NCBI GenBank assembly: GCA_011525805.1
Contig: WYBR01000070.1
Coordinates: forward strand, 80,588-144,587
Source of the DNA: Vicinamibacteraceae bacterium
GTDB lineage: Bacteria > Planctomycetota > Phycisphaerae > Phycisphaerales > UBA5793
Reading direction: 5' to 3'
Length of the DNA stretch: 64,000 nt
The notes beneath the pieces were generated by a model. The model saw nothing but the letters and a program-made list of their open reading frames with translations, was not told the DNA's origin and did not search any database. Shown here in pieces: positions 8,367-21,101 of this stretch. Numbering within the stretch: the first letter of the stretch is position 1; each line of letters opens with the position of its first letter. A program made the position numbers and the translations under genes.

Positions 8367-9593
8367 ATGGCGCTGTATCGATACCAGGCAAAGGGCGGCA
8401 ACGGCGAGGTGCGCTCCGGCACCCTCGCGGCCGACAGCGCCATGATGGCGGCGGCGATCCTGCGCAACCAGGGCCAGCGCGTCGTCAGTCTCTCCCCGAT
8501 CGAGTCGGCGCAGGTCAAGAGCCTCGGCGCCACCTTCAAGAGCCTCAACTACAGCAGCGGCCCGAGCCAGCGCGACGTCCTCGACTTCACCACCCAGATG
8601 GCGGTGATGATCCGCGCCGGCATCTCGATCCGCGCCGCCCTCGAAGGCATCGCCGACCAGGTGCAGAACCCCAAGTGGCGCGAAGTGCTCCGCAACGTCC
8701 GGCAGGACGTCGAGGGCGGCCGGCAGTTCTCCGAGGCCATCGCCAAGTATCCCAAACTTTTCAGCCCCCTCTACGTCAACATGGTCCGCGCGTCGGAGAT
8801 GTCCGGCTCGTTCGCGAAGATGCTCGACCGCATCGCCGCCTACATGAGCCAGCAACTCGAAACGCGCAAGATGGTCATCGGCGCGATGATCTACCCGGGA
8901 ATCATCGGGACCATGGCGGTCGCCGTGACCGTCTTCCTGCTCACCTTCGTCCTGCCGCGCTTCGCCGTCGTCTTCAAGGGCAAGGAGGAGCACCTCCCCA
9001 AGCCGACCGTCTTCCTCATGGCGATCTCGGCCTTCATGGTGCAGTACTGGTACGTGCTCATGATCATCGCCTTCGCCCTCGGCGTCGGACTGTTCATCTT
9101 CATGAGGACGCGCATGGGACGGCTGACCGTCGACCGGCTCAAACTCCGCGTGCCGCTCTTCAAGCGCATGTTCCGCGCGCTCTACATCAACCGCAGCCTG
9201 CACACCATGGGCGAACTGCTCAGCGCCGGCGTGCCCATGCTCGACTCGCTCGCCATCACCGGCGACATCTCGGGCAACTCGGTGTACAAGCAGATGTGGC
9301 GGCAGGTCTACGCCTCGGTCAAGCAGGGCAAGAAACTCGTCCAGCCGCTCCAGAAGTCCGTCCTCCTGCCACGCTCCGTCGTCCAGATGATCGCCGCCGG
9401 CGAGGAGTCCGGCAAGTTGTCGGACGTTCTCCAGGAGATCGCGTCCTATTACTCCAAGGTCCTGCGCGACGCGATAAAGACCGTGACGAGTATGATTGAA
9501 CCGATCATGATCATTGTGATGGGTTCGGTCGTCGGATTCATCGCGATGGCGATCATCCTGCCAATCTTCAAGATGTCCTCGCTCGTTAAGTAG
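8367..9593 (+). CDS. pilC: Type IV pilus / T2SS platform protein (PilC/GspF family)
   Basis: 408 aa with a duplicated GspF-type domain (FTTQMAVMIRAGISI... and ...LHTMGELLSAGVPML), three TM segments and a C-terminal ILPIFKM motif. Confidence 0.9.
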   Translation: MALYRYQAKGGNGEVRSGTLAADSAMMAAAILRNQGQRVVSLSPIESAQVKSLGATFKSLNYSSGPSQRDVLDFTTQMAVMIRAGISIRAALEGIADQVQNPKWREVLRNVRQDVEGGRQFSEAIAKYPKLFSPLYVNMVRASEMSGSFAKMLDRIAAYMSQQLETRKMVIGAMIYPGIIGTMAVAVTVFLLTFVLPRFAVVFKGKEEHLPKPTVFLMAISAFMVQYWYVLMIIAFALGVGLFIFMRTRMGRLTVDRLKLRVPLFKRMFRALYINRSLHTMGELLSAGVPMLDSLAITGDISGNSVYKQMWRQVYASVKQGKKLVQPLQKSVLLPRSVVQMIAAGEESGKLSDVLQEIASYYSKVLRDAIKTVTSMIEPIMIIVMGSVVGFIAMAIILPIFKMSSLVK

Positions 9594-9663
9594 GGAAGGG
9601 TGGAGGGGTTCCAAGCCCTCTGAACCGGGCCTGGACGCTCCGGGAACGAGGAAGGTACGCACC

Positions 9664-10254
9664 ATGCGCCACCCGCAGGACAGGCTCTCAACCCCACAAC
9701 CGGCGCGCGCCCGCCGGGCGCGGCCGACCGGTTTCACCCTCCTCGAAACCGCGCTGGCGATCATCATCGTCGGCAGCGGCGTGCTCGCGATCCTCTACGC
9801 TCAGATGGCCTTCCACCGCCAGAACGACTGGTCGACGCACACCTCGACCGCCACGTTCCTCGCCAACGAGATCCGCGAGATGACCGTGCGCCTCTCGCCC
9901 CACGACCCCGTCACCGGCAGCGTCTACTGGGGGCCCGAGCCGAACGAACTCACTCTCGCCGACTTCGACGATCTCGACGACTTCGACGGCGTCGAGGGGC
10001 TGGGAACCGTCTTCAGCGAAGCCGAGGGCACGGGCCCGGTGAACGCCCAGCGCCTCATCGTCCCCGACATGCCGGGATGGTCGCAGGTCGTGCGCGTCGC
10101 CAAGGTGGCCAAGAACAACATCAGCGGGCCGGAGGATCCCGACCTCGCCCCCGGACTGTACGTGCTGCGCATCGAGGTGGCCGTCTTCTACCAGGGGGCG
10201 AGCGACCCCGAGCCGAGCGAAGTCACCAAGATCGCATGGATCAACGAGGAATAG
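9664..10254 (+). CDS. Prepilin-type N-terminal cleavage/methylation-domain minor pilin
   Basis: The class III signal peptide ...RPTG/FTLLETALAIIIVGSGVLAI has Glu at +5. Confidence 0.7.
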   Translation: MRHPQDRLSTPQPARARRARPTGFTLLETALAIIIVGSGVLAILYAQMAFHRQNDWSTHTSTATFLANEIREMTVRLSPHDPVTGSVYWGPEPNELTLADFDDLDDFDGVEGLGTVFSEAEGTGPVNAQRLIVPDMPGWSQVVRVAKVAKNNISGPEDPDLAPGLYVLRIEVAVFYQGASDPEPSEVTKIAWINEE

Positions 10255-10301
10255 AGATTCGATCGGGCCACGATCGGGCCGGATGGTGAAACGGAGCGGC
10301 G

Positions 10302-12782
10302 ATGAACGGGCGAAACGAACCAAGGGTGCGGAGAATGCGCGATGGTGTCGGCGCTGCGCCGCGCCGGATCGGCGCGGGCGCGTTCCAGCGGCGCCTCGGC
10401 GGACGGCCTCGCGCCCGAGGCGCGCGGCGCCGCGGCGTGGCGTCGGTCCTCTCCATGATGTTCCTGGTCATCTTCGGTTCCCTCGCCGCCGTCATGGCCG
10501 TCGTCGCGCAGGGCAACGTCCGCACGGCCCATTCGCACCTCCAGGTGAACCGGGCGATGAGCGCGGCGGAGACCGGGCTGAGTTTCGCCGGCCGCCGCCT
10601 CACCGGCGCCGCGCAGCGCTTCGTCGTCGAGAAGGGCCTCGTGACCGACGAGTTCGGCGAAAAATTGTGGAACGGAACGTGGGACAGCAGCGACGGCGCC
10701 GTCTCGATCCTCGAACCCGACTTCGTCGAGTCGCCCCCCGCCACCAGCCTCGCGACGGCCCTGCTCAACGCCCACGCCGCCGACGAGCACAACCTCATCC
10801 TCGAACCCCCCGACGAACTCCTCCCCGCCATCGACGAATTCGGCAAACTCGTGGTGCGGCCCATCGCCGTCACCACCGAGGAGCACGCCGCGACGTTCAA
10901 ACTCTCCTACGAGCCCCTCGCCGACGGCCGTTACATCCGCGTCACCAGCGTCGGGCGCGACGGCGAACTGACGCGCACGCTCCAGATGGACTTTCAGATC
11001 GTCAAGCGCCTCGACGCTGCGATCATCTCGCCCAATCGCGTCATGATCGGAAAGAACGTCCACATCGACGGGCCGATCGGAACGCGCTTCGGCGAGGACG
11101 CCGTCGATCTCGAAGACCCCCTCGGCCATCCGATCGTCATGAAGTCCGACTTCCGCCACCTCGACGCGGAACTCGATTCGCGCATCGAGGCGATCATCGC
11201 CTCCATCGGCGAGTTCGACGTCAACGGCGACAACCGCCTCCGACCCGGACACCCGACCGAGTCGGACGGCCTCACCGAGCCATTCATGATCGACGCCAAC
11301 GGCGACGGCTTCGTCGATGACTACGACCTCTGGCTCGATTTCTACGACCAGAACGACGACGGCTGGGTCGTCTACGACCAGGACCTCGCCTACGCCGCCG
11401 GACGCGGCACGCTCAACGTCGAGTTCGCCGGCATCGACGACCAGCTCGCCGAGATGATCGACACCCTCTGCCCCGACCGCAACGGCGACGGCGTCGTCGA
11501 CCTTGAGGACACCGCGCTGGGGTACCTCGACGGCGTCATCGACAACCTCGACGGCTACAGCAAGGTGCGCGGTAACCTCCTCTTCAAGGCCAGCAAGGAC
11601 AACTGGGAGGCCTCAAAGGAAGGCCAGCCCTGGCAGAACTTCGTCAACGGGCCCATTCACGCCGACGTCGAGTACGCCTCCTCCGAGTTCGAAGTGCCCG
11701 ACACGCGGCTCTACGACCTCAGCATCACCGACTTCACCAACGCGCAGAACGCCCTCAAGGCCGTGACGTCCGGCAGCGCCTCGTTCGCCGATCAACTCGA
11801 ATCGCAACTCGGCGGCGACCCCAACTCCCACATCTGGTCCGACCACCCCACCGAGCCGGACTACCTCCGACCCGACCTGGGCGTGTGGGAGCAGATGCCC
11901 CTCGGCTCGCCGGGCTTCTACGACTGGTACCGCCGCCCCATCTACAAGAACATGACCTTCGTCAACGTCGCCGTCCCCGAGGGGATCAACGGCCTGTTCA
12001 TCAACTGCATCTTCATCGGCGGCGTATATGTCAAGACGTACGCCGACAACGACCACGTCAACTGGAACTTCCTCGGCATCAAGGAACTCATCGGCACCGA
12101 GTACGTCGACAAGTACGACTACGAGTCCTGGGAGCCGGTGCTCGAAATCGACGGCAATCCCGTCTACGACACCAAGCCCTTCTCGAACAACGTCCGCTTC
12201 GACTCCTGCACCTTCATCGGGTCCATCGTCTCCGATCCCGCCGACGAACTGACGCACGTGCGCAACAAACTCCAGTTCACCGGCAACACTCGTTTCACAC
12301 TCGACCCGGCGGAGATCGAGAACAGCAACCTCGATCCCCTCGACAAGGAGGCGGCGCTTGAGAGTTTCAACAGCAGTTACGAGCAGCTGCGCCGCAGTTC
12401 GCTCCTCGCCCCGAACTTCTCCGTGGACGTGGGCAACTTCGAGAACGCGGACGAGAAAGTGACGATGCAGGGAACGATCGTCGCCGGCGTGCTCGACGTT
12501 CGCGGCCGGGCCGAGATCATCGGCGCCCTGCTCATGACCTTCAAGCCCGTCATCGGCCAGGGGCCGCTCTTCTACGGCGGCCTCGCCTCCGCCTTCAACA
12601 CCACGCTGGGCTACTTCAGCGTCGAGGAGGGCGACGGCGAAGGCATGGACCCCGATCCCGAGGTCGGCTTCGGAAACATCTACCTCAAGTACGACCCCGA
12701 CATCCCCATGCCCGACGGCATTAACGCGCCCATCAAGGCCGTCCCCGTCAAGGGAACCTACGTCGAAGGAGTCTCGCCATGA
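10302..12782 (+). CDS. Large PilX/GspK-like minor-pilin-associated protein with EF-hand/dockerin-like Ca-binding motifs
   Basis: It has an N-terminal basic stretch plus a hydrophobic helix (VASVLSMMFLVIFGSLAAVMAVVAQG) but no Glu5, as in PilX/GspK-type proteins. It sits between two prepilin genes, and the next start overlaps its stop (ATGA at 12779). DxNGDG-type motifs lie at aa 306-405. The start is uncertain; an alternative ATG is at 10335. Confidence 0.5.
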   Translation: MNGRNEPRVRRMRDGVGAAPRRIGAGAFQRRLGGRPRARGARRRGVASVLSMMFLVIFGSLAAVMAVVAQGNVRTAHSHLQVNRAMSAAETGLSFAGRRLTGAAQRFVVEKGLVTDEFGEKLWNGTWDSSDGAVSILEPDFVESPPATSLATALLNAHAADEHNLILEPPDELLPAIDEFGKLVVRPIAVTTEEHAATFKLSYEPLADGRYIRVTSVGRDGELTRTLQMDFQIVKRLDAAIISPNRVMIGKNVHIDGPIGTRFGEDAVDLEDPLGHPIVMKSDFRHLDAELDSRIEAIIASIGEFDVNGDNRLRPGHPTESDGLTEPFMIDANGDGFVDDYDLWLDFYDQNDDGWVVYDQDLAYAAGRGTLNVEFAGIDDQLAEMIDTLCPDRNGDGVVDLEDTALGYLDGVIDNLDGYSKVRGNLLFKASKDNWEASKEGQPWQNFVNGPIHADVEYASSEFEVPDTRLYDLSITDFTNAQNALKAVTSGSASFADQLESQLGGDPNSHIWSDHPTEPDYLRPDLGVWEQMPLGSPGFYDWYRRPIYKNMTFVNVAVPEGINGLFINCIFIGGVYVKTYADNDHVNWNFLGIKELIGTEYVDKYDYESWEPVLEIDGNPVYDTKPFSNNVRFDSCTFIGSIVSDPADELTHVRNKLQFTGNTRFTLDPAEIENSNLDPLDKEAALESFNSSYEQLRRSSLLAPNFSVDVGNFENADEKVTMQGTIVAGVLDVRGRAEIIGALLMTFKPVIGQGPLFYGGLASAFNTTLGYFSVEEGDGEGMDPDPEVGFGNIYLKYDPDIPMPDGINAPIKAVPVKGTYVEGVSP

Positions 12783-13366
12783 TCGCCCTTCGCCGTTCAC
12801 GCCCCCGCCGCCGCGCCTTCAGCATCATCGAGATGCTCCTGGCCATCTCCATCACCTCGCTCCTGCTCACCTCGCTGCTCGCGGCCCTGAGCGCCTCCTT
12901 CCGCGCCTATCAGGCCACGACGGAGTCCGCCTCGCGCCACACCATCGCCCGCCTCACCATGCACCGGCTGCTGGCGATGATCCGCACCGGGACGCAGTTC
13001 GGGCCCTACCCCGACAACGTCATCACCGACCCCATCATCCAGTCCGACTACCTCGAGTTCGTCGCCGCCGACGGCACCTTCGTGCGCGTCGAGTACCGCG
13101 ACCTCGACGAGTCGCTCTACGTCGTCGTCGATCCGCTCGGCGAGCCGCAGGAGGAACTCCTCCTCACCGGCGTCGCGCCGATCTTCGACGAGAACAACGA
13201 GCGCATCCCGCCCTTCACGCTCCACTACACCCGCGGGCCGCTGCTCTATCGCGCCACCATCGACCTGCTCATCGTCGAAGACAACGAGATCAACCTCGCG
13301 GTCGAAGGCTCGGACGTCCCTCCCCTGCGCATGGTCGCCTCAACCATGCCGCGCAACAACCTCTGA
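12779..13366 (+). CDS. Prepilin-type N-terminal cleavage/methylation-domain minor pilin
   Basis: The class III signal peptide RRRA/FSIIEMLLAISITSLLLTSL has Glu at +5. Confidence 0.7.
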   Translation: MIALRRSRPRRRAFSIIEMLLAISITSLLLTSLLAALSASFRAYQATTESASRHTIARLTMHRLLAMIRTGTQFGPYPDNVITDPIIQSDYLEFVAADGTFVRVEYRDLDESLYVVVDPLGEPQEELLLTGVAPIFDENNERIPPFTLHYTRGPLLYRATIDLLIVEDNEINLAVEGSDVPPLRMVASTMPRNNL

Positions 13367-13378
13367 CGCAGGCGAATG

Positions 13379-13580
13379 CGGGTGCCACTGCACGCTCGCC
13401 ATCGAACTCCGCCCAAAGCGGCGGCGTTCGATGCCACCCAAGCCTTGAACGGGTGCCACTGCACGCTCGCCGCTCTGGGCGAGAGTGCAGTGCGAACGGC
13501 AAGGTTGATCGTCGGTGCTTGGGCGGACGACTGCGCCTGCACGCTCGCCGCTCTGGGCGAGAGTGCAGTGCGGAACGGCA
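13379..13580. repeat. Palindromic repeats (REP-like) between convergent genes: two full copies and one partial copy
   Basis: The shared core CTGCACGCTCGCCGCTCTGGGCGAGAGTGCAGTGCG-AACGGC occurs at 13459-13500 and 13537-13580. A half copy, GGGTGCCACTGCACGCTCGCC, is at 13379-13400. Each full copy folds as a 15-bp stem with one mismatch around the loop GCTCTG. Confidence 0.7.
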
Positions 13581-13609
13581 ACGACGCGCCCCAAGCCGAG
13601 CCCCAAGCC

Positions 13610-15337
13610 TTACTCAATCCTCACCACGTTGCTCGTCTTGCACCGGCTGACATCGACGAGTTGGAGGTATGCGCCGCAGGCGGATCGGGGGATGGTGGTG
13701 ACGAGGCGGCCGGCGCCGAAGTCGCCGGCGGAGCCGATGAAGGCGACTTGCAAATCAAGCGCGCCGAGACCCAGCGGCGTGCCGGCGCAGGGGTTGCCGT
13801 TGGGAATGACAAAGTTGCCGGTGCGCCGGCCGAAGAGAATCGCGATGCGGGCGCGGCGATCCGGCGTGGCCTGGAACCATCTGACTTCAATCTCCCCGCC
13901 CTGCCCGCCGGCGCAGTCGGGAACCTTCTGCAACGTAAGAACCGGCGGCGGACAGTTGCCCGGCTCGCCGGGGTCGAGGTCGAAGGAGTAGACGGCGCCG
14001 ACGGCGTCAATCTGAAGGCCGCCGACGCATTGCGTGGTGTGCGCGCCGATCACGGCTAATGACGCTGACCTGCGATCGCCTAGGGCGACTGTGAACCCGA
14101 ACGCGTCAAGCACATCTTGCTCGGCGCCGTAAAGCGCCTGAACTGCCGACCATTCTCCTGAGGGCCCGATCAGTTCGAAGACATAGACACATCCAGATGA
14201 AACGCCGAAGTCCCTATTCTCGGGTGCGGCGGCAAGCAGTCGCGCTGTCCCTCCAGATTCCAGACATACAGATTGACCAAAGAACATGTCACTCGGGTTT
14301 GCGACAGGCGGAACCAAGTGTGCTTCTTGACGCCATGTACCTTCCGTCGTACGCAGGTAGAGGTATGTCGCTCCCGGACCTGCCGGGAAACCGAAGCCGC
14401 CCTCGTTCGTTCGCCCGACTGCAGCCCGGTGGCTAATGCCCGGAAGGTCAACGACCGGTGCGACCGATACGTCCTGTCCAAAGAGGTCTTGCTCATACGG
14501 ATCTGGCGCCTCGAACTGTGCTTCGAGCATCCATGCATTAGAGACTGAGTCGAATCGGTAGAAATACGCTGCTCCGGGTTGAGTGTTGGGGCCAACATAC
14601 AGGTGTCCTGACGCGCCTACCGTCAGGATGGTCGAACCATCGCTTTCACTCGCCGAGAGTCCGAATCCGAATGCGTCCTCGGGTGATCCGTCGGGCGCCT
14701 GAAGATGAGCCTGCTGCCTCCATGCTCCCAGTCCGTCGCGCTCGAACACGTAGGCAGAACCGATGACGCCCGTCGAATCCGATCCCGGCGCGCCGACGAT
14801 CAGGAAGGTGCGCCCCCCGGCGGTCGCCCAGGCGAGTTCGTTCCCGAACCAGCCGAACGGGACGGAAACGTCCGGGAGCACTTCTCCGTCCTGAACCCAC
14901 TGCATGGAACTGTTCAGCCGGAAAACATAGACCTTGCCAGCGTCGTCGTCGATCAGACTGTTGTATGGGCTGGCACCGGCAAGTAGCCACTCATTGCTAG
15001 ATGAATCGAAGTGGAACGCCACGGCGTTTCCAAAAGCATCGAAGGGGCGCAAGTCGTGGGGGCGAAGATCGGATTCGAAATCCCATTGTTGCGTGATCGG
15101 GTTGAGCACGTAGGTCGAAATGCGGCCGCCGGGAAGGTCGTAACGCCCCACGGCCATGCGGTCGTCGCGCACCGACAGCGACCTCCCGAAGCCGTTGCCG
15201 TCGTTGCAGGGGCTGATGAGACGCTGCAGCTGCGCTGGGGGGCAAGGCGGGGTCTGCGCGACAACTGAGTGCCGCGCGCACATCACGCCGAGCGCGCTGA
15301 GAAGGGCTCCTGAAGCCCGTATGATGATGCGTGCCAT
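13610..15337 (-). CDS. Secreted FG-GAP (integrin-alpha-like) beta-propeller repeat protein with a Cys-containing C-terminal domain
   Basis: Signal peptide MARIIIRASGALLSALGVMCARHSVVAQ, with an AGGGAGA Shine-Dalgarno upstream. FG...GAP-type blades recur (FGNAVAF..AGASP, FLIVGAPGSDSTGVIGSAYVFER, LFGQDVSVA, FFGQSVCLE..LLAAAPENRDFGVSSGCVYVFEL, AFGFTVALGD). Confidence 0.75.
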   Translation of the reverse strand: MARIIIRASGALLSALGVMCARHSVVAQTPPCPPAQLQRLISPCNDGNGFGRSLSVRDDRMAVGRYDLPGGRISTYVLNPITQQWDFESDLRPHDLRPFDAFGNAVAFHFDSSSNEWLLAGASPYNSLIDDDAGKVYVFRLNSSMQWVQDGEVLPDVSVPFGWFGNELAWATAGGRTFLIVGAPGSDSTGVIGSAYVFERDGLGAWRQQAHLQAPDGSPEDAFGFGLSASESDGSTILTVGASGHLYVGPNTQPGAAYFYRFDSVSNAWMLEAQFEAPDPYEQDLFGQDVSVAPVVDLPGISHRAAVGRTNEGGFGFPAGPGATYLYLRTTEGTWRQEAHLVPPVANPSDMFFGQSVCLESGGTARLLAAAPENRDFGVSSGCVYVFELIGPSGEWSAVQALYGAEQDVLDAFGFTVALGDRRSASLAVIGAHTTQCVGGLQIDAVGAVYSFDLDPGEPGNCPPPVLTLQKVPDCAGGQGGEIEVRWFQATPDRRARIAILFGRRTGNFVIPNGNPCAGTPLGLGALDLQVAFIGSAGDFGAGRLVTTIPRSACGAYLQLVDVSRCKTSNVVRIE

Positions 15338-15391
15338 GACTCATCTCCCTTTGTGCGCCCCCGCGTGCTGATTTGACCGAGGGGGGCCGTC

Positions 15392-17151
15392 TCAAAACGG
15401 GATGACATAGACGCCGCCAAGGTCATTCGCGGACCCGTTTCCGTAGTTGGTCGTGTCCCACCCCGGCGCCCCGAACATGATCTCATCGTTATAGTCCTGG
15501 TCGTTGTTGATGTCACCGATGAATATGACGGAGCGACCAAGATACGGGGCTTCGTTGTCGTAGGGGTTTTCGTCGCAGAGAATTTGATAATAACGAAAGG
15601 CACTGCTGGCCGTCCAGGTCTCGTGCCCGCCATTCTCGCCCACGGCCATACTCCCCGAGTACCGGAAGAGATAGGCGAAACCACGGTCGTTTCTGAGCTG
15701 TGGTGGGGTATATGCACAGCTGTTTCCGCGCGGCGCGCCGATCAGGAAGTCGGCGCGGGAGTCGGTTCCCTTGTTCGTGTTGCCGTTGCAGGCCATTGCG
15801 TAGCCGAAGAGGACGTAGTCATCGCCCGTCGGACCGTCGATGATGATGTTGGCGTTCGCCGCCTCCCAGACGTACGGATCCCCGCTCGGCCAGCCTGCGG
15901 AGTAGTTGGGCATGAGAAAGACGTAGACGCGGCCGACATCCGTCCGCGTCGGATTGCCTTCAACATCGTGCAGAAGACTGGCGATGACGATGTCGTTCAC
16001 CCCGTCGCCGTTCAGATCGCCCTGTGAGGCGAGCGATTGGCCCAACTTGTCCTCCGCGTTCTCGCCGGTGAAGATGATCTTCGCGTAGTCGTAGGCCTCC
16101 TGATCTTCCTCCGGATACGTGGAAGCGCCGGCGAAGAGATAGACCGTGCCGACCCGGCAGTCATCCTCCAGTGACTCCGACGTCCAGGGAGGATTGCCGT
16201 CGTACGACCAGTTGAAGTTTTGGCCGGTGCAGCCGCCGGTGTAATTGGTGGACGTGCGGCGCGGAGCGGAGACGATGAAGTCGTCGTAGCCGTCGCCGTT
16301 CAGGTCTCCGACGCTGGCCACGCTCTGGCCGAAGTAGCCCCGCGTCTGCTCGACGGCGGTCCCTGGAACCCAACTCGGTTCGCCACGAATGACCAGTTCG
16401 GCCTCATTGACGTTGCGCCAGTCGGTGGATGTCTCCCAGCCGTCGTGGTCGAAGATGTAGACGGCGCCGGTCCAGTCCTCGACCCATCCCTGATTCTGAA
16501 CGTAGATGCAACCTTCGCACTGGCTCCAGTACCGAGCCCCGACGATGAGGTCGAGGTCGCCGTCGCCGTTGAAGTCGGCGAGAGCGACCGACCAGCCGAA
16601 GTTGTCGCCGAGTTGCCCGCCGTAGGAGGCGTGGCTCTGGAACTTGTGCTTGAGCACGAAGGTCGGCCCGCTCGTGTCGTCATAGTCGAAGATGTAGACC
16701 GCACCGTAGCTTTGCGCGCCAGCGCCGTCGCCGCCCGGCTCGGTCACGATCAGTTCATCCTTGCCGTCGCCATCCACGTCGGCCGCTTCGAGATCCCAAC
16801 CGAAAAAGACGCACACGTTCGGCGTGCCGCTGGGATGAGGGACCGTGATGGGGCTGCTCCATCCGCTGTCGTACTCATAGACGTAGACGTGGCCGCGGCC
16901 TTCGTTATTGCCGAATCCCGTCTCCATGCTCTCGAAGGTTGAGATCGCCACATCGCGTTTCCCGTCGCCGTCGAAGTCGCCTGTGGCCATGGCGTGCCCG
17001 AACTGCGGGCCGTAACCGGAGCCGAGATCAACCCCCGGAATAGTCGGCGTGGTCACCGTCGTCTGCGCGAGCGCTACCCCCCCCCCCCCCCGAGAAGGGC
17101 GACGACCATCGAAGTGACGCGGAGCCACGATGAGTGAGCATTTCCTGCCAT
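15392..17151 (-). CDS. Secreted seven-blade FG-GAP/Ca-binding beta-propeller protein, with the reading frame broken by a G15 homopolymer between the signal peptide and the mature part
   Basis: The mature frame (17077 down to 15392, 561 aa) carries seven FG-GAP blades with DxDGDG loops (GDFDGDGKRDVAIS, ADVDGDGKDELIVT, ADFNGDGDLDLIVGA, GDLNGDGYDDFIVSA, GDLNGDGVNDIVIAS, ...FLIGAP, GDINNDQDYNDEIMFGAP). The ATG at 17151 has GGGAGG 9 nt upstream and encodes MAGNAHSSWLRVTSMVVALLGGGGG, then TAG. That places it one nucleotide out of frame with the mature part. The track ORF extension up to 17551 has no credible start. Confidence 0.7.
17077..17091 (-). repeat. Homopolymer tract, C15 on the plus strand (G15 on the coding strand)
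   Basis: Counted directly: 4 C at 17077-17080, 10 C at 17081-17090 and 1 C at 17091. It lies exactly at the junction between the signal peptide and the mature protein of the FG-GAP gene. Confidence 0.9.
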
Positions 17152-17213
17152 GTGGTCCATCCTCCCGGGCGGGGTTGAGGTGAAAAGGGGCGGGGCCGCA
17201 ATACACGCTATTG

Positions 17214-17241
17214 ATTATCCTGATTTCTGCCCCCTTGTCAA
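17214..17241 (-). promoter_or_regulatory. Candidate sigma-70 promoter for the FG-GAP operon
   Basis: The minus strand reads TTGACA (17241-17236), a 16-nt spacer, then GATAAT (17219-17214). It lies in a locally AT-rich intergenic stretch about 60 nt upstream of the ATG at 17151. Confidence 0.4.
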
Positions 17242-17321
17242 GGGGCTTTTCCGGAATCGCGTGAAGTTCGGCCGCTTTCGGCGGAGGTGGGGCTTTGGCG
17301 TGGGGTGCGGGAGCGGGTTCG

Positions 17322-17975
17322 TCAGCGCGGCCGGGCGGGGATGCCTTGGACGGTGGCGCCGTCGGGGACGTCGCGGCAGACGACCGCGCCGGCGCCGACC
17401 ACGGCCCGGGCGCCGATGCGGCGGCCGGGGAGGATGCGGCAGCCCAGCCCCAGGAGGGCCGACTCGCCGACTTCGACCGATCCGCCGAGCGCAGCGCCGG
17501 GGGCGACGTGGGCCCACGGGCCGATGCGGCAGTCATGCTCGATGATCGCACCGCTGTTGATGATCGCTCCGTCGCCGATGGAAGCGCCCGGGTTGATGAT
17601 CGCGCCGGCGCTGATGAAGACGCCGCGGCCGAGCGTCACGTCGAGGCGGCTGATGATGGCCGTCGGATGCGCCACGAGGGCGAGGCGGTCGGGGCAGCAT
17701 TCGATGATGGGGACGGCGGCGCGGGCGCGTCGGCTGTTGTCGCCCAGGGCGGAGATGAAGCGGCAGCGTGCTTCACAGCGGGTCCACTCGCCCAGCGCGC
17801 CGAGTCGCGGCAGGCCTTCGCGGGCGAGCGCGGCGTCGGGGGCATCATCGAGGAAGCCGGCGATGTTCCAGCCCGAGGCGCGTGCGGCGTCGAGGACGAC
17901 CTTGGCGTGCCCGCCTCCGCCGATGAGCACGAGGGGGGCCGTCGCGTCAGGATGATCGCTCACGCGTGCGTGCAT
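17322..17975 (-). CDS. Sugar O/N-acetyltransferase, NeuD/PglD-like left-handed beta-helix (hexapeptide-repeat) family
   Basis: N-terminal Rossmann-like LVLIGGGGHAKVVLDAARASGWNIAGFLDD is followed by hexapeptide repeats (GVFISAGAIINPGASIGDGAIINSGAIIEHDCRIGPWAHVAPGAALGGSVEVG...). The ATG at 17975 was chosen inside track ORF 17322-18542. Confidence 0.8.
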   Translation of the reverse strand: MHARVSDHPDATAPLVLIGGGGHAKVVLDAARASGWNIAGFLDDAPDAALAREGLPRLGALGEWTRCEARCRFISALGDNSRRARAAVPIIECCPDRLALVAHPTAIISRLDVTLGRGVFISAGAIINPGASIGDGAIINSGAIIEHDCRIGPWAHVAPGAALGGSVEVGESALLGLGCRILPGRRIGARAVVGAGAVVCRDVPDGATVQGIPARPR

Positions 17976-18454
17976 TGCTCTTGCGACTTCGCGGCTTCGA
18001 TCTGACGGATGGGCCGATACTTCTCGCCGATGGCGAGGTCCCACGGCTCGTGAGTCTCGTCGATGACGAGGTCGCGGAACTCGCTGCGGCAACGGTAGCA
18101 GACGAGGCACTGGCCCGTGAAGACATAGATGATGCGATCGACGACGACGGCGGCGAGAAGCAGGAGCATCGCCCAGATGACCTGCCACAGGAAGAGCAGG
18201 AGGACAGCGCCGGCGGCGGTGGCGATGACCAGCGCCAGCCCCAGGCGCTGCGGGAAGTCGTAGCGCTTGAAGATCTCGCGGCAGCCGCAGACCGGGCAAC
18301 GGCGCAGGCGGCCGCGGTCGTCGAGCGCGCCTTCCCATTGGAGGTCGATGCGGCGATCGGAGCCCTCGAGGGCGACGGAGCCCGGGCGGGCATTCTCGTC
18401 GATCGTGACGCGGCCGAGGGGCTCGCGGTGAAGGTCGTTGACGGAGACGCGCAT
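17960..18454 (-). CDS. Zinc-ribbon membrane protein (hypothetical)
   Basis: CPVCGC...CLVCYRC Cys pairs flank two hydrophobic helices (LGLALVIATAAGAVLLLFLW, AMLLLLAAVVVDRIIYVF). Its 3' end overlaps the acetyltransferase start by 16 nt. The opposite-strand ORF 17966-18484 is Asp/Ala-rich antisense-type sequence. Confidence 0.5.
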   Translation of the reverse strand: MRVSVNDLHREPLGRVTIDENARPGSVALEGSDRRIDLQWEGALDDRGRLRRCPVCGCREIFKRYDFPQRLGLALVIATAAGAVLLLFLWQVIWAMLLLLAAVVVDRIIYVFTGQCLVCYRCRSEFRDLVIDETHEPWDLAIGEKYRPIRQIEAAKSQEQCTHA

Positions 18455-18543
18455 GGCTTGAGGTTCCGCGGAGGGAGATCGTAGCGCGGCATGGCGGAGG
18501 GCAGCGGTTGCGCCGGCGGTGGGCGCCGCTACAGTTCCGCACT

Positions 18544-19413
18544 ATGAGCGCTCGACCCGACGGACCGCCCGACGCCCGCCATCGTGTCGGGGTGGTGAGT
18601 TACCTCAACACGCTGCCGCTGATTGACGGCCTGGAGAATCTCGCCGACGTGCATCTCGTGCATGCCGTGCCGAGCCGGCTGATCGACCTGCTGCTGGGCG
18701 GCGAGGTGGAGGTGGGGCTGTGCTCGATCGTGGATTACCAGAGATCGCCCGAGGCGCTCAAGATCGTTCCTGCCGGGCTGCTCGGGTGCGACGGGTCGAC
18801 GATGACGGTGCGGCTGTTCAGCCAGGTTCCTCTCGCACGGCTGACGAGAGTTCACTGCGACACTGAGAGCCACACGTCCGTGATGCTGCTCCGCGTGCTG
18901 CTCGATGCGCAGCACGGCGTGAGGCCGGAACTCGTGAACTACGACGCCGCCGGGCATCGGACCGTGGAGGGGCGCCGCGTGCAGTGGCCCGAAGCGATGC
19001 TCCTCATCGGCGACAAGGTGGTCACGGACGCGACGCCGGCCATCCGCTATCCCTACCAACTCGACCTCGGGGCGGAGTGGAGGGAACTCACCGGCCTGCC
19101 GTTCGTGTTTGCGACGTGGATGGCCCGCCGTGAGACGGACGCCCGTGCGGCCGGCGCCGTGCTCGACCGGCAGCGGCGGCACAACCGCGAGCGGCTCGAC
19201 GCGTTTCTGAGGCGTCAGGCGCCGCGGCACGGCTGGCCGATCGACCTGGCGCGATCCTATCTCAGCGAGATGCTGCGCTTCGAGTGGACGCCGCGCATGG
19301 TGGCGGGAGTCGAGCGCTTCTTCGGGATGGCGCACGACCTCGGGTTGATCGACGAGAACCGGCCGCTGGAGTGGGAGCGCGATGGCGTCGAGGAGTGCGC
19401 CGGCGCGCCGTAG
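18544..19413 (+). CDS. mqnA: Chorismate dehydratase MqnA (futalosine pathway of menaquinone biosynthesis)
   Basis: GVVSYLNTLPLIDGL...VPSRLIDLLLGGEVEVGLCSIVDY...LIGDKVV...YQLDLGAEWRELTGLPFVFATWMAR matches the periplasmic-binding-protein-like MqnA (DUF178) pattern. Confidence 0.75.
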   Translation: MSARPDGPPDARHRVGVVSYLNTLPLIDGLENLADVHLVHAVPSRLIDLLLGGEVEVGLCSIVDYQRSPEALKIVPAGLLGCDGSTMTVRLFSQVPLARLTRVHCDTESHTSVMLLRVLLDAQHGVRPELVNYDAAGHRTVEGRRVQWPEAMLLIGDKVVTDATPAIRYPYQLDLGAEWRELTGLPFVFATWMARRETDARAAGAVLDRQRRHNRERLDAFLRRQAPRHGWPIDLARSYLSEMLRFEWTPRMVAGVERFFGMAHDLGLIDENRPLEWERDGVEECAGAP

Positions 19414-19418
19414 CAGTC

Positions 19419-21101
19419 ATGGCCCGTCCGCCGCGATTCACGATTTCGGCGCTGGCCGACCTCCTTCGGGAACTGCGCTACGCCCCGCCGGAGACGCTGC
19501 ACCGGCAGATGACGACGGCGGAGGCGCTGCTGGGCGAGATCGACCCGGAGCGGAACTACCCGGAAGACTACATCCGTTACCGCATTACGGGTTACCGGGG
19601 CGAATCGGCGGGGGGATCGCTCTTCGTCGGCTCCGCCCTCATCGGCGACCTGGCGATCTTCGTCGAGCGGCTCAGCGCCTCGCTGGCGCTGCCGGTTGCG
19701 GAGTTTGCGCCGCGCCAACCCCTGCTGCCCGAGGAAGTGGCGCGCCGCCTTGGGGTGAGCGCGATCACGCTGCACCGCTACCGCCGGCAGGGCCTGGTGG
19801 CGCACCAGGCGGTGCTGGGCGGCGGCCGGCCGCGGCTGGTCTACTTCACGGATGCGGTGGAGCGCTTCGCCGCTCGGGCGCCGCGGCGGGTGGAGGCGGC
19901 GGGCCGTTTCTCGCGCATCGATCCCGCCACGCGTGAGCGCATGATCCGCCGGGCGCGGCGGTATGCGGCGAGTCTCGATCTTTCGCTCAACGAGGCGGCG
20001 CGGCGGCTGGCCAAGCGCTTCGGCCGCAGCCACGAGGGCATCCGCCGCCTGCTCCAGCAGCACGATCGCCGCCGCCCGGCCGAGGCGATCTTCCACGACG
20101 CCAGGCCGCTGAGCGAGCGCCAGCGCCGCCTGGCTCTGCGGGCGCACGACCGGGCCCTGCCCGCCTCCGAAGTCGCGCAGCGCCTCGGCAAGACGGTCAG
20201 CAGCGTTTACCGCACAACCCTCGAGCAGCGGGCGCAGCGCCTGCGGGCGTGGAACGTCAACGGCCGGGAGTTGCCCACGTTTCGCCTCGAAGGGGCGGGC
20301 GAGGTGATTCTCGCGGCGGATTCGGCGGTTCGCGGTCTGCCGGTCGTGCTCGACGTCGGCGGCGAACTGACCGCGTGGATCGGCGATGCGGCGGCGCTGG
20401 AGATCCGGCGCGAGGTCGAAGAGGCGCAACTCGCCGCGGCGCTGCACTACCTGCTCTGGTCGACCCGCAGGATCATCGACGACCTGCCCCGGCATCAGCC
20501 CCGGGCGGCGGAGATCGACGAGGCGGAGACGAGGCTGCGCTGGGCGACGCGGCTGAAGGTGCGGCTGCTCACGGGGCTCCGGGCCGCGGCGCTCTCGACC
20601 ATCGAGATCCATCTCGGTCGCAAACTGCTTCAGTGTGCGGCGGGGGAGATCGACGCGGCGTACCGGCTCGCGCTCGGCTCGCTCAGCCGCAGCATCGACG
20701 CCTTTGACGCAAGTCGGCAAGGGCGGCTGCGCGCCGTCGCCGTGCATGCGTTGCGCACGGAACTGGCGCGCGGCGGTTCGCGGAGCGGCCCGCCTTCCAC
20801 GGCCCGGGCCCGGCACGATCAACGGTCGCTCGTGCTGCCGGACCTGCCCGCGCTGGTCTTTGCGTGGCGGAGCGTGCTCGAGCCGCGGGCAGGAGCGATT
20901 GCTGCGGCGGAGGCGCTGAGCGAGGAGGACCGGCGGATCCTCGCGGCTCGCTTCGGCTGGACCGGCGGTGCGCCGCAGACGCATGCGGCGATCGCGGCCG
21001 CGCTCGGCCGGCCGGTGCATCGCATTGCCGCGGCGGAGCATCGCGCCCGCCGGCGCCTGGCGCAACAACTGCGCCGGGAGAGTCAAGACGGCGCCCGCTG
21101 A
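19419..21101 (+). CDS. Sigma-70 family protein with an N-terminal extension of about 330 aa carrying three helix-turn-helix-like segments
   Basis: Region 2-like AYRLALGSLSRSIDAFDASRQGRLRAVAVHALRTELAR. Region 4-like LSEEDRRILAARFGWTGGAPQTHAAIAAALGRPVHRIAAAEHRARRRL. N-terminal HTH-like segments: EEVARRLGVSAITLHRYRRQG, LNEAARRLAKRFGRSHEGIRRLL and ASEVAQRLGKTVSSVYR. The ATG at 19419 lies 5 nt after the mqnA stop. Confidence 0.55.
   Translation: MARPPRFTISALADLLRELRYAPPETLHRQMTTAEALLGEIDPERNYPEDYIRYRITGYRGESAGGSLFVGSALIGDLAIFVERLSASLALPVAEFAPRQPLLPEEVARRLGVSAITLHRYRRQGLVAHQAVLGGGRPRLVYFTDAVERFAARAPRRVEAAGRFSRIDPATRERMIRRARRYAASLDLSLNEAARRLAKRFGRSHEGIRRLLQQHDRRRPAEAIFHDARPLSERQRRLALRAHDRALPASEVAQRLGKTVSSVYRTTLEQRAQRLRAWNVNGRELPTFRLEGAGEVILAADSAVRGLPVVLDVGGELTAWIGDAAALEIRREVEEAQLAAALHYLLWSTRRIIDDLPRHQPRAAEIDEAETRLRWATRLKVRLLTGLRAAALSTIEIHLGRKLLQCAAGEIDAAYRLALGSLSRSIDAFDASRQGRLRAVAVHALRTELARGGSRSGPPSTARARHDQRSLVLPDLPALVFAWRSVLEPRAGAIAAAEALSEEDRRILAARFGWTGGAPQTHAAIAAALGRPVHRIAAAEHRARRRLAQQLRRESQDGAR

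Follow-up and report, generated by a model that had tools for sequence, protein, structure and literature searches.

The 64,000-nucleotide stretch of DNA analyzed here (the window) belongs to contig WYBR01000070.1 of the Phycisphaerales assembly GCA_011525805.1, and carries on its minus strand a cassette of two genes encoding FG-GAP repeat proteins. In the first of them, gene 1, a run of 15 G residues (G15, 17077..17091, minus strand; C15 on the plus strand) separates the start codon and the signal-peptide leader from the frame of the protein body. We propose, with a probability of about 0.7, that this run is a DNA-level slipped-strand phase-variation switch of a secreted beta-propeller. Slipped-strand mispairing in DNA replication would alter the number of G residues. 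At lengths 13 or 16 the leader would be joined to the propeller frame and the protein would be made and exported (ON), while at other lengths translation would end after approximately 25-40 codons (OFF). The OFF state would probably also lower the expression of gene 2 via polarity. Since the variable glycines lie in the signal peptide, which is cleaved off, a change of length is expected to be harmless to the mature protein. The initial annotation of the window had offered an ON/OFF switch or an assembly error. The switch is now supported by the conserved position and variable length of the tract in a multi-copy family, by differences between alleles, by a (CT)12 repeat that takes its place in one member, and by intact gene bodies under purifying selection.

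In the window, the leader (17092..17151, minus) starts with an ATG at 17151-17149, separated by a 9-nt spacer from the Shine-Dalgarno (SD)-like motif GGGAGG (17161..17166, minus), and its 20 codons up to the G run encode the n- and h-regions of a Sec-type signal peptide, MAGNAHSSWLRVTSMVVALL. As assembled, the leader open reading frame (ORF) is MAGNAHSSWLRVTSMVVALLGGGGG and stops at TAG (17076-17074) directly after G15. The FG-GAP frame opens inside the run at 17077 (GTA GCG CTC GCG CAG, that is, VALAQ) and stays open to the stop at 15392, a total of 561 codons. Resizing the tract in silico yields products of 585 amino acids at G13 and 586 at G16, both starting with MAGNAHSSWLRVTSMVVALLGGGG(G)VALAQTTV, and of 40, 25, and 41 amino acids at G14, G15, and G17, respectively. 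Inspected by eye, the fused N-terminus has the Sec layout: its n-region contains an Arg, a hydrophobic core follows, and ALA/Q stands at its end. The predicted mature N-terminus of the propeller after cleavage is QTTVTTPTIPGVDLGSGYGPQFGHAMATGDFDGDGK. Upstream lies a sigma-70-like promoter (TTGACA-16 nt-GATAAT, 17214..17241, minus) that matches 11 of 12 consensus positions; three promoter-like sites were found compared to 0.6 expected in shuffles. The cassette region (14000-17000) has a G+C content of 59-64%, compared to 68-74% in the flanks. All these elements agree with the initial annotation, which had described the leader, the two frame-restoring changes (one G more or two fewer), a strong promoter, and a lower-GC context. 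The search of the window against Rfam gave no match to an RNA family, and hence neither a known riboswitch nor a known leader RNA upstream of gene 1.

Apart from the G15 run, no homopolymer in the whole window (67.7% G+C) exceeds 7 bases; the counts of C/G runs drop approximately 4-5 fold with each added base, and the second-longest homopolymer is a G7 at 2267-2273. In the relatives of gene 1 described below, other homopolymers of at least 8 are also rare, with three in 91 kb of family loci; 7 G/C runs of this length occur in 410 kb of unrelated FG-GAP loci. Homopolymers of 8 are located, for example, at L103:1034 (G8) and L008:6147 (C8).

The body of gene 1 (15392..17077, minus; 561 codons from the predicted signal-peptidase site VALA/QTT, stop included) has no internal stop codons, and the fused protein contains five Pfam FG-GAP repeats (PF01839, E = 6e-44). 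The AlphaFold2 model of the product has a mean predicted local distance difference test score (pLDDT) of 76.7 and a predicted template modeling score (pTM) of 0.83, and its top Foldseek matches in PDB are the headpieces of integrins alpha5, alphaV, and alphaIIb (E ~1e-15 to 1e-13). According to this model, gene 1 encodes a seven-bladed integrin-alpha-like FG-GAP beta-propeller. The likeness to the N-terminal propeller of integrin alpha extends to the five FG-GAP repeats and the DxDxDG-type loops (TM-score ~0.53, normalized to the query), whereas the identity is only about 16%, and the bacterial protein, predicted to be secreted, has no thigh or calf domains, transmembrane segment, or beta subunit. 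The putative Sec signal peptide would direct export, and the protein may be located at the surface; no surface-anchor motif was found in the gene 1 product, and NCBIfam gave nothing relevant.

A protein search with gene 1 yielded approximately 18 close relatives with 53-77% identity, the named ones coming from Phycisphaerales metagenome-assembled genomes (MAGs), and the scan of genome contigs yielded three loci. The scan of metagenome contigs with generic FG-GAP motifs identified 79 distant propeller genes, used only as the homopolymer background, and one true relative (L008). In every family locus that was fetched, gene 1 is accompanied by the FG-GAP_2 gene in the same two-gene cassette. The contexts of the cassette differ: one locus is syntenic with the window, and others lie, for example, after rpoC, peptidase S8, OEP, or sigma-factor genes. 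There are at least three paralogs per MAG, namely L001, L002, and L088 in UBA5793, and L004, L005, and L097 in GCA_048499635.1, and each paralogous copy has its own repeat tract.

Tract length was compared in these relatives, as the initial annotation had proposed. Fourteen distinct G-tract loci, the window included, could be read as DNA, and all of them have a tract of G7-G15 at the same position in the leader, which is thus kept across members that are 53-79% identical. Only one of these loci is in frame: L088/L089, with G8 (ON lengths 5, 8, and 11). In ten loci the tract has exactly one G too many (the "+1" state). These are L004 with G15 (ON at 14 or 17), L005 with G11 (ON at 10 or 13), L096/L097 with G12-A-G (ON at 11 or 14), and L098-L101 with G10 (ON at 9 or 12). 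The remaining six have ON lengths of 8 and 11: L090-L095, L006/L007, L001, L002, and L104 with G9, and L105 with G9-A-G5 (the lengths referring to its first run). The L104 sequence begins inside the leader, and its tract was read by hand. The other three loci are in the "-1" state: the window itself with G15 (ON at 13 or 16), L008 with G10 (ON at 8 or 11), and L102 with G7 (ON at 5 or 8). The most common length is G9 (7/14). Resizing the tract alone produces an ORF of more than 450 amino acids from the leader start in 13 of the 14 loci, and in scripted resizing over 23 related sequences the tract alone breaks the frame in each. The assemblies are independent: they include NODE contigs made with SPAdes, a UBA MAG, Joint Genome Institute (JGI) metagenomes, and Logan contigs that stem from ten or more sequencing runs. 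One locus had G9 in 6/6 runs, and another had G10 in 4/4 assemblies.

The fifteenth locus verified as DNA, L103, is the most divergent (53-56% identity). It has no G tract; instead, a (CT)12 repeat occupies the signal-peptide region (2443-2466) and is out of frame, with (CT)11 or (CT)14 restoring the frame. That diverged members have repeats of two kinds at one functional position argues for selection for a mutable site. The codon usage points in the same direction. GGG makes up 13-18% of the glycine codons in the gene bodies, so that five consecutive GGG codons have p ~2e-4 from codon usage alone. This value, together with the conserved position and the CT substitute in L103, suggests that the repeat is maintained by selection and not by a codon or amino-acid preference.

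Some tracts depart from this pattern. Single-A interruptions are observed at L097:2467-2480 (G12-A-G) and L105:79-93 (G9-A-G5). An interruption is expected to slow slippage, and these two may be partly locked alleles. In L102 the start ATG of other type-B leaders is replaced by ATT and the G7 is out of frame (2400-2500), so this may be a decaying copy. In L105 a G8 run occurs inside gene 2 (at 2767), and this gene is called as two ORFs of 336 and 83 amino acids; it may carry a second frameshift.

The signals upstream of the tract are conserved along with it. The CCTTGAC block of the -35 region is kept in 12/12 aligned family loci covering the region, and the SD motif GG(G/A)AGG is kept in all aligned family leaders. 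In the window, a palindrome, CCCTTGaCAAGGG (17244-17232, minus), overlaps the -35 hexamer of the promoter; the type-B leaders have CCCTGAtTCAGGG between -35 and -10 instead. Both may be operator sites.

Different alleles of the same locus indicate that the length of the tract changes. For P0121, P0129, P0130, P0132, P0136, P0004, P0016, and P0018, tract lengths and frame states were derived from protein sequences, not from DNA. The body of P0121 is identical to that of the window gene (561/561), and its N-terminus implies G14 instead of G15. P0132, a full-length protein with a signal peptide (ON), and P0016, which is truncated (OFF), are identical in 547 of 548 positions. P0006 implies G8 and P0136 implies G11; both are in frame and belong to the same 90% cluster. 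Among the UBA5793 paralogs, two have G9 (OFF) and one has G8 (ON). Judging by these sequences, one and the same locus can have different tract lengths in different samples, and alleles of either state, ON or OFF, exist. The search with the 77-amino-acid fused N-terminus for ON alleles of this leader type on short contigs gave no match, which we ascribe to the limit of the word index and do not regard as evidence of absence.

Despite the prevalence of OFF alleles, the gene bodies are intact and under purifying selection. The ratio of nonsynonymous to synonymous substitution rates (dN/dS) between family bodies is 0.09-0.32, and no second lesion was found in approximately 14 OFF bodies of 535-556 codons.

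The family also bears the marks of recombination. Over 17600-19990, L004 matches the window with 99.9% identity, and judging by this flank the two come from the same or nearly the same strain. Inside the cassette, a block of 1.55 kb that includes the promoter, the leader, the tract, and about three quarters of gene 1 (15800..17350, minus) has only 72-85% identity to the syntenic L004 sequence, while beyond it the identity is approximately 94-100% through gene 2. The block looks like an allelic replacement or gene conversion. The synteny with L004 stops at 13609, and in L004 a Transposase_mut gene (PF00872, L004:6583-7605) adjoins the cassette exactly at this point. In 100-nt and 50-nt bins, the 5' untranslated region and leader of the window have 96-98% identity to L004, L005, and L090 (97-98% for the leader bin compared with L005 and L090), although the gene bodies have only about 55-75%. 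High conservation among paralogs is confined to two parts, the leader and the 3' end of gene 2, and the bodies between these cassette ends are only 45-75% identical. Such a profile is that of a cassette family in which recombination at the conserved ends reshuffles the sequences between them. With its own tract in each cassette copy and recombining bodies, a population would be able to vary the propellers displayed on the surface.

Several observations weigh against the proposed switch. ON alleles are under-represented, with one in-frame and 14 out-of-frame states among the 15 DNA-verified loci (p = 0.019 compared to one third). In addition, there is an excess of the "+1 G" state, 10/14 G-tract loci (p = 0.004, or p = 0.019 with near-identical leaders collapsed). 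Neither skew is predicted by an unbiased switch, and they need a mutational bias, selection for OFF, or some recoding. Selection for OFF is possible from the cost of the protein or from avoidance of a phage receptor. By analogy with Campylobacter jejuni, a mutational bias toward G9 would explain the G9 loci, but not the "+1" state at G10, G11, G12, and G14/15. The consensus lengths at individual loci are identical across samples (6/6 G9, 4/4 G10, 2/2 G12, 2/2 G9, and 2/2 G8) in a look-up by the exact called product, which would have missed ON alleles but would have caught OFF alleles of another length. The proposed switch would entail mixed lengths in one population, and frequent, reversible switching in clones. 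Finally, some of the assemblies may be long-read ones (contigs of 1.4 Mb), with unreliable homopolymer lengths, and tracts of G14-G15 are hard for short reads. The G15 of the window could be off by 1-2, and its own ON/OFF state is uncertain.

The main rival to a DNA-level switch, although we consider it unlikely, is recoding at the level of expression. In this case OFF would be the normal resting state, corrected by RNA-polymerase slippage or by a +1 ribosomal frameshift of the prfB type, in which the G run serves as a slippery site and SD-like stimulator, with TAG or TAA in the A site. Tract length would then tune a low-level protein output instead of turning it ON and OFF, and such tuning could be layered on a DNA-level switch. 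To our knowledge, this would be the first G-run-based recoding signal in bacteria. The two skews described above, 14/15 loci out of frame and 10/14 with exactly one G too many, are what recoding would account for, as are the stable consensus lengths across samples and the purifying selection on OFF bodies. Moreover, TAG or TAA directly follows the run in the window, L001, L002, L006, L090, L098, and L104, and a stop directly follows the interrupted G9-A-G5 of L105. As in prfB, many members have a G-rich SD-like stretch followed by a slippery codon and a stop in the same frame (GGG TAA or GGG TAG), and would be read on only after a +1 shift.

However, unlike in prfB, neither the frame relation nor the stop is conserved: one G-tract locus is ON, ten are "+1", and three are "-1". 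The ON alleles are L088, P0136, and P0132, and the "-1" alleles are L008, L102, and the window, whose tract needs -1 (or +2) and not +1. The stop directly past the run, and with it the prfB-like context, is absent in L004, L005, and L097, and the alleles of the same locus differ (G14 and G15). L103 uses (CT)12, and we know of no programmed ribosomal or transcriptional slippage on a CT repeat. The ON and "-1" alleles, the -1 needed in the window, the three loci lacking the stop, and the CT repeat of L103 together make a strictly programmed frameshift unlikely. As to transcriptional slippage, PMC3711429 cites (as its reference 15) a precedent of homopolymer frameshifts that are kept and rescued in this way in A/T runs, and it is for A/T runs, not G runs, that its introduction documents such slippage.

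It is quite unlikely that the frame break in the window results from a sequencing or assembly error, with a true tract that is in frame (for instance, G16) and a simple intact gene. Tracts of G14-G15 are hard to size on any platform, the 1.4-Mb contigs of some related assemblies suggest long reads, and the fact that the same body was assembled with 15 G in the window and 14 in P0121 could be noise. On the other hand, tracts of G7, G9, and G10 in SPAdes, Logan, UBA, and JGI contigs, which short reads should size reliably, are also out of frame, and such short tracts were recovered again in 2-6 independent runs for each locus, so that miscalled homopolymers cannot account for what is seen across the family. 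The (CT)12 repeat is likewise out of frame, and an error cannot create a conserved all-GGG glycine run against the codon usage. Even if the length in the window is wrong, the tract stays a hypermutable site. Least probable, and very much so, is a decaying pseudogene, that is, a fixed inactivating frameshift in an accessory gene being lost: gene 1 as assembled cannot make a secreted protein, L102 combines a "-1" G7 with an ATT start, the tracts of L105 and L097 are interrupted by A, and a transposase adjoins the cassette in L004, but the OFF bodies have no second lesion and a dN/dS of 0.09-0.32, the promoter, SD motif, and leader are conserved, ON alleles occur in the same clusters, and independent inactivation at the same codon in every paralog is implausible unless the site is hypermutable.

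Three other candidates were rejected. An alternative ATG in the +1 frame (17139..17141, minus; MLTHRGSASLRWSSPFS...), located in a 57-amino-acid ORF (17028-17201), joins the propeller frame at G14 or G17, and the called proteins P0121, P0005, P0129, and P0130 from other assemblies begin at this codon. As a general second ON state it was rejected: the resulting N-terminus is non-hydrophobic and does not resemble a signal peptide, and in L001, with its type-B leader, a TGA interrupts that frame just 5' of the tract. The annotated start at Met 16990 (P0001, 532 amino acids) is an artifact. This Met is part of the first FG-GAP repeat and is not preceded by an SD motif, and a start there would give a truncated cytoplasmic propeller. 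A role for a G-quadruplex was dismissed as well: G15 could in principle fold, but the G7-G12 tracts of the relatives and the CT repeat could not form three-tetrad quadruplexes.

The slipped-strand switch proposed for the propeller family resembles several well-studied systems. Like pilC of Neisseria gonorrhoeae and N. meningitidis, which encodes a pilus-associated protein of the PilY1 family, it involves a G tract of comparable length near the 5' end of the coding sequence for a secreted or surface protein, present in more than one copy per genome. Jonsson et al. in 1991 reportedly placed the pilC tract in the signal-peptide coding region. The repeat of the Neisseria opa genes lies in the leader-peptide coding region. 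The pilC tract is G(9-20) within the reading frame, whereas the opa genes are multi-copy, carry CTTCT repeats, and form recombining mosaic alleles (PMC5953494). Unlike with pilC, the host here belongs to Phycisphaerales, has 68% G+C, and is not a host-restricted pathogen, and the gene heads a two-gene propeller cassette. No sequence homology was found, as neither Pfam nor NCBIfam gave a PilC/PilY1 domain match in the gene 1 product. A linkage to a pilus operon, as for PilC/PilY1, was considered and rejected: a GspF/pseudopilin cluster lies near the cassette in the window, but other loci have the cassette in unrelated contexts.

The propeller family shares with opa the multiple copies, each with its own repeat, the OFF state of most copies, and the recombination between loci. 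It differs from opa in having a mononucleotide repeat (CT in one member) and not a pentamer, and a soluble beta-propeller and not an eight-stranded outer-membrane barrel, with no host or immune system involved. No homology to the Opa beta-barrel was found: Pfam gives FG-GAP families only, and the predicted fold is a beta-propeller. In C. jejuni, the mode of the polyG tracts in reading frames (G8-G11) is 9, and the mutational bias depends on length, G8 tending to gain and G11 to lose bases (PMC3401435). The propeller family shares G9 as its commonest length. Unlike in the AT-rich C. jejuni, at most loci of these high-GC genomes G9 is an OFF length (ON at 8 or 11), so that the gene is silent at the commonest length.

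Gene 2 of the cassette (13610..15337, minus) encodes a 575-amino-acid FG-GAP_2 protein (Pfam FG-GAP_2, E = 3e-29) with its own signal peptide. It begins 54 nt past the gene 1 stop, and the two genes probably share a transcript. The final ~400 nt of gene 2 (~13600-14000) have an identity of 86-98% among the paralogs with type-A leaders and of 79-90% to L006, whereas the remainder is only 45-65% identical among paralogs. This conserved 3' end has no Pfam or NCBIfam match; it could be a C-terminal domain or a recombination anchor. Two identical 34-nt elements (13459-13492 and 13537-13570, minus) are located just 3' of the gene 2 stop, each carrying an imperfect inverted repeat, CTGCACTCTCGCC ... 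GGCGAGCGTGCAG, and resembling repetitive extragenic palindromic (REP) or terminator elements. A 55-nt stretch 3' of the cassette in L097 is 98% identical to its counterpart in the window. A cluster similar to type II secretion or type IV pilus systems (8367-13366, plus strand) is convergent to the cassette. It encodes a GspF/PilC platform protein (8367-9593, plus), two proteins that resemble pseudopilins and have prepilin N-termini (9664-10254 and 12779-13366, plus), and an 826-amino-acid protein with no family match (10302-12782, plus).

The frame break at the tract has consequences for annotation. Nearly all relatives are called without a signal peptide and start with MATGDFDG, MAQTTV, MLGPNLG, MGGGNTL, or a wrong-frame N-terminus, MLTHRGSASLRWSSPFSGGG. 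Similarly, the database entries P0001-P0018, P0121, P0129, and P0130 start at an internal Met, just past the tract, or at a wrong-frame ATG (MLTHRGSASLRW...). Gene callers thus systematically mis-annotate the propeller family, and the signal peptide is mostly missing from public entries. At the same time, with its G7-G15 tracts and its CT repeat, the family is a natural data set in which repeat dynamics can be analyzed directly in metagenomic reads.

The mechanism proposed here is a textbook one; the novelty lies in the lineage and the gene family, in the bias toward OFF throughout this family, and in its systematic mis-annotation. In the literature searched, no paper refers to Phycisphaerae together with phase-variable genes, and none was relevant for Planctomycetes. 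Contingency loci based on simple sequence repeats (SSRs) have been described mostly in pathogens and commensals adapted to a host. The propeller locus suggests that SSR switching also operates in uncultured high-GC Phycisphaerales (Planctomycetota). If this is true, stochastic surface variation matters in environmental bacteria too, perhaps driven by phages, grazers, or attachment trade-offs.

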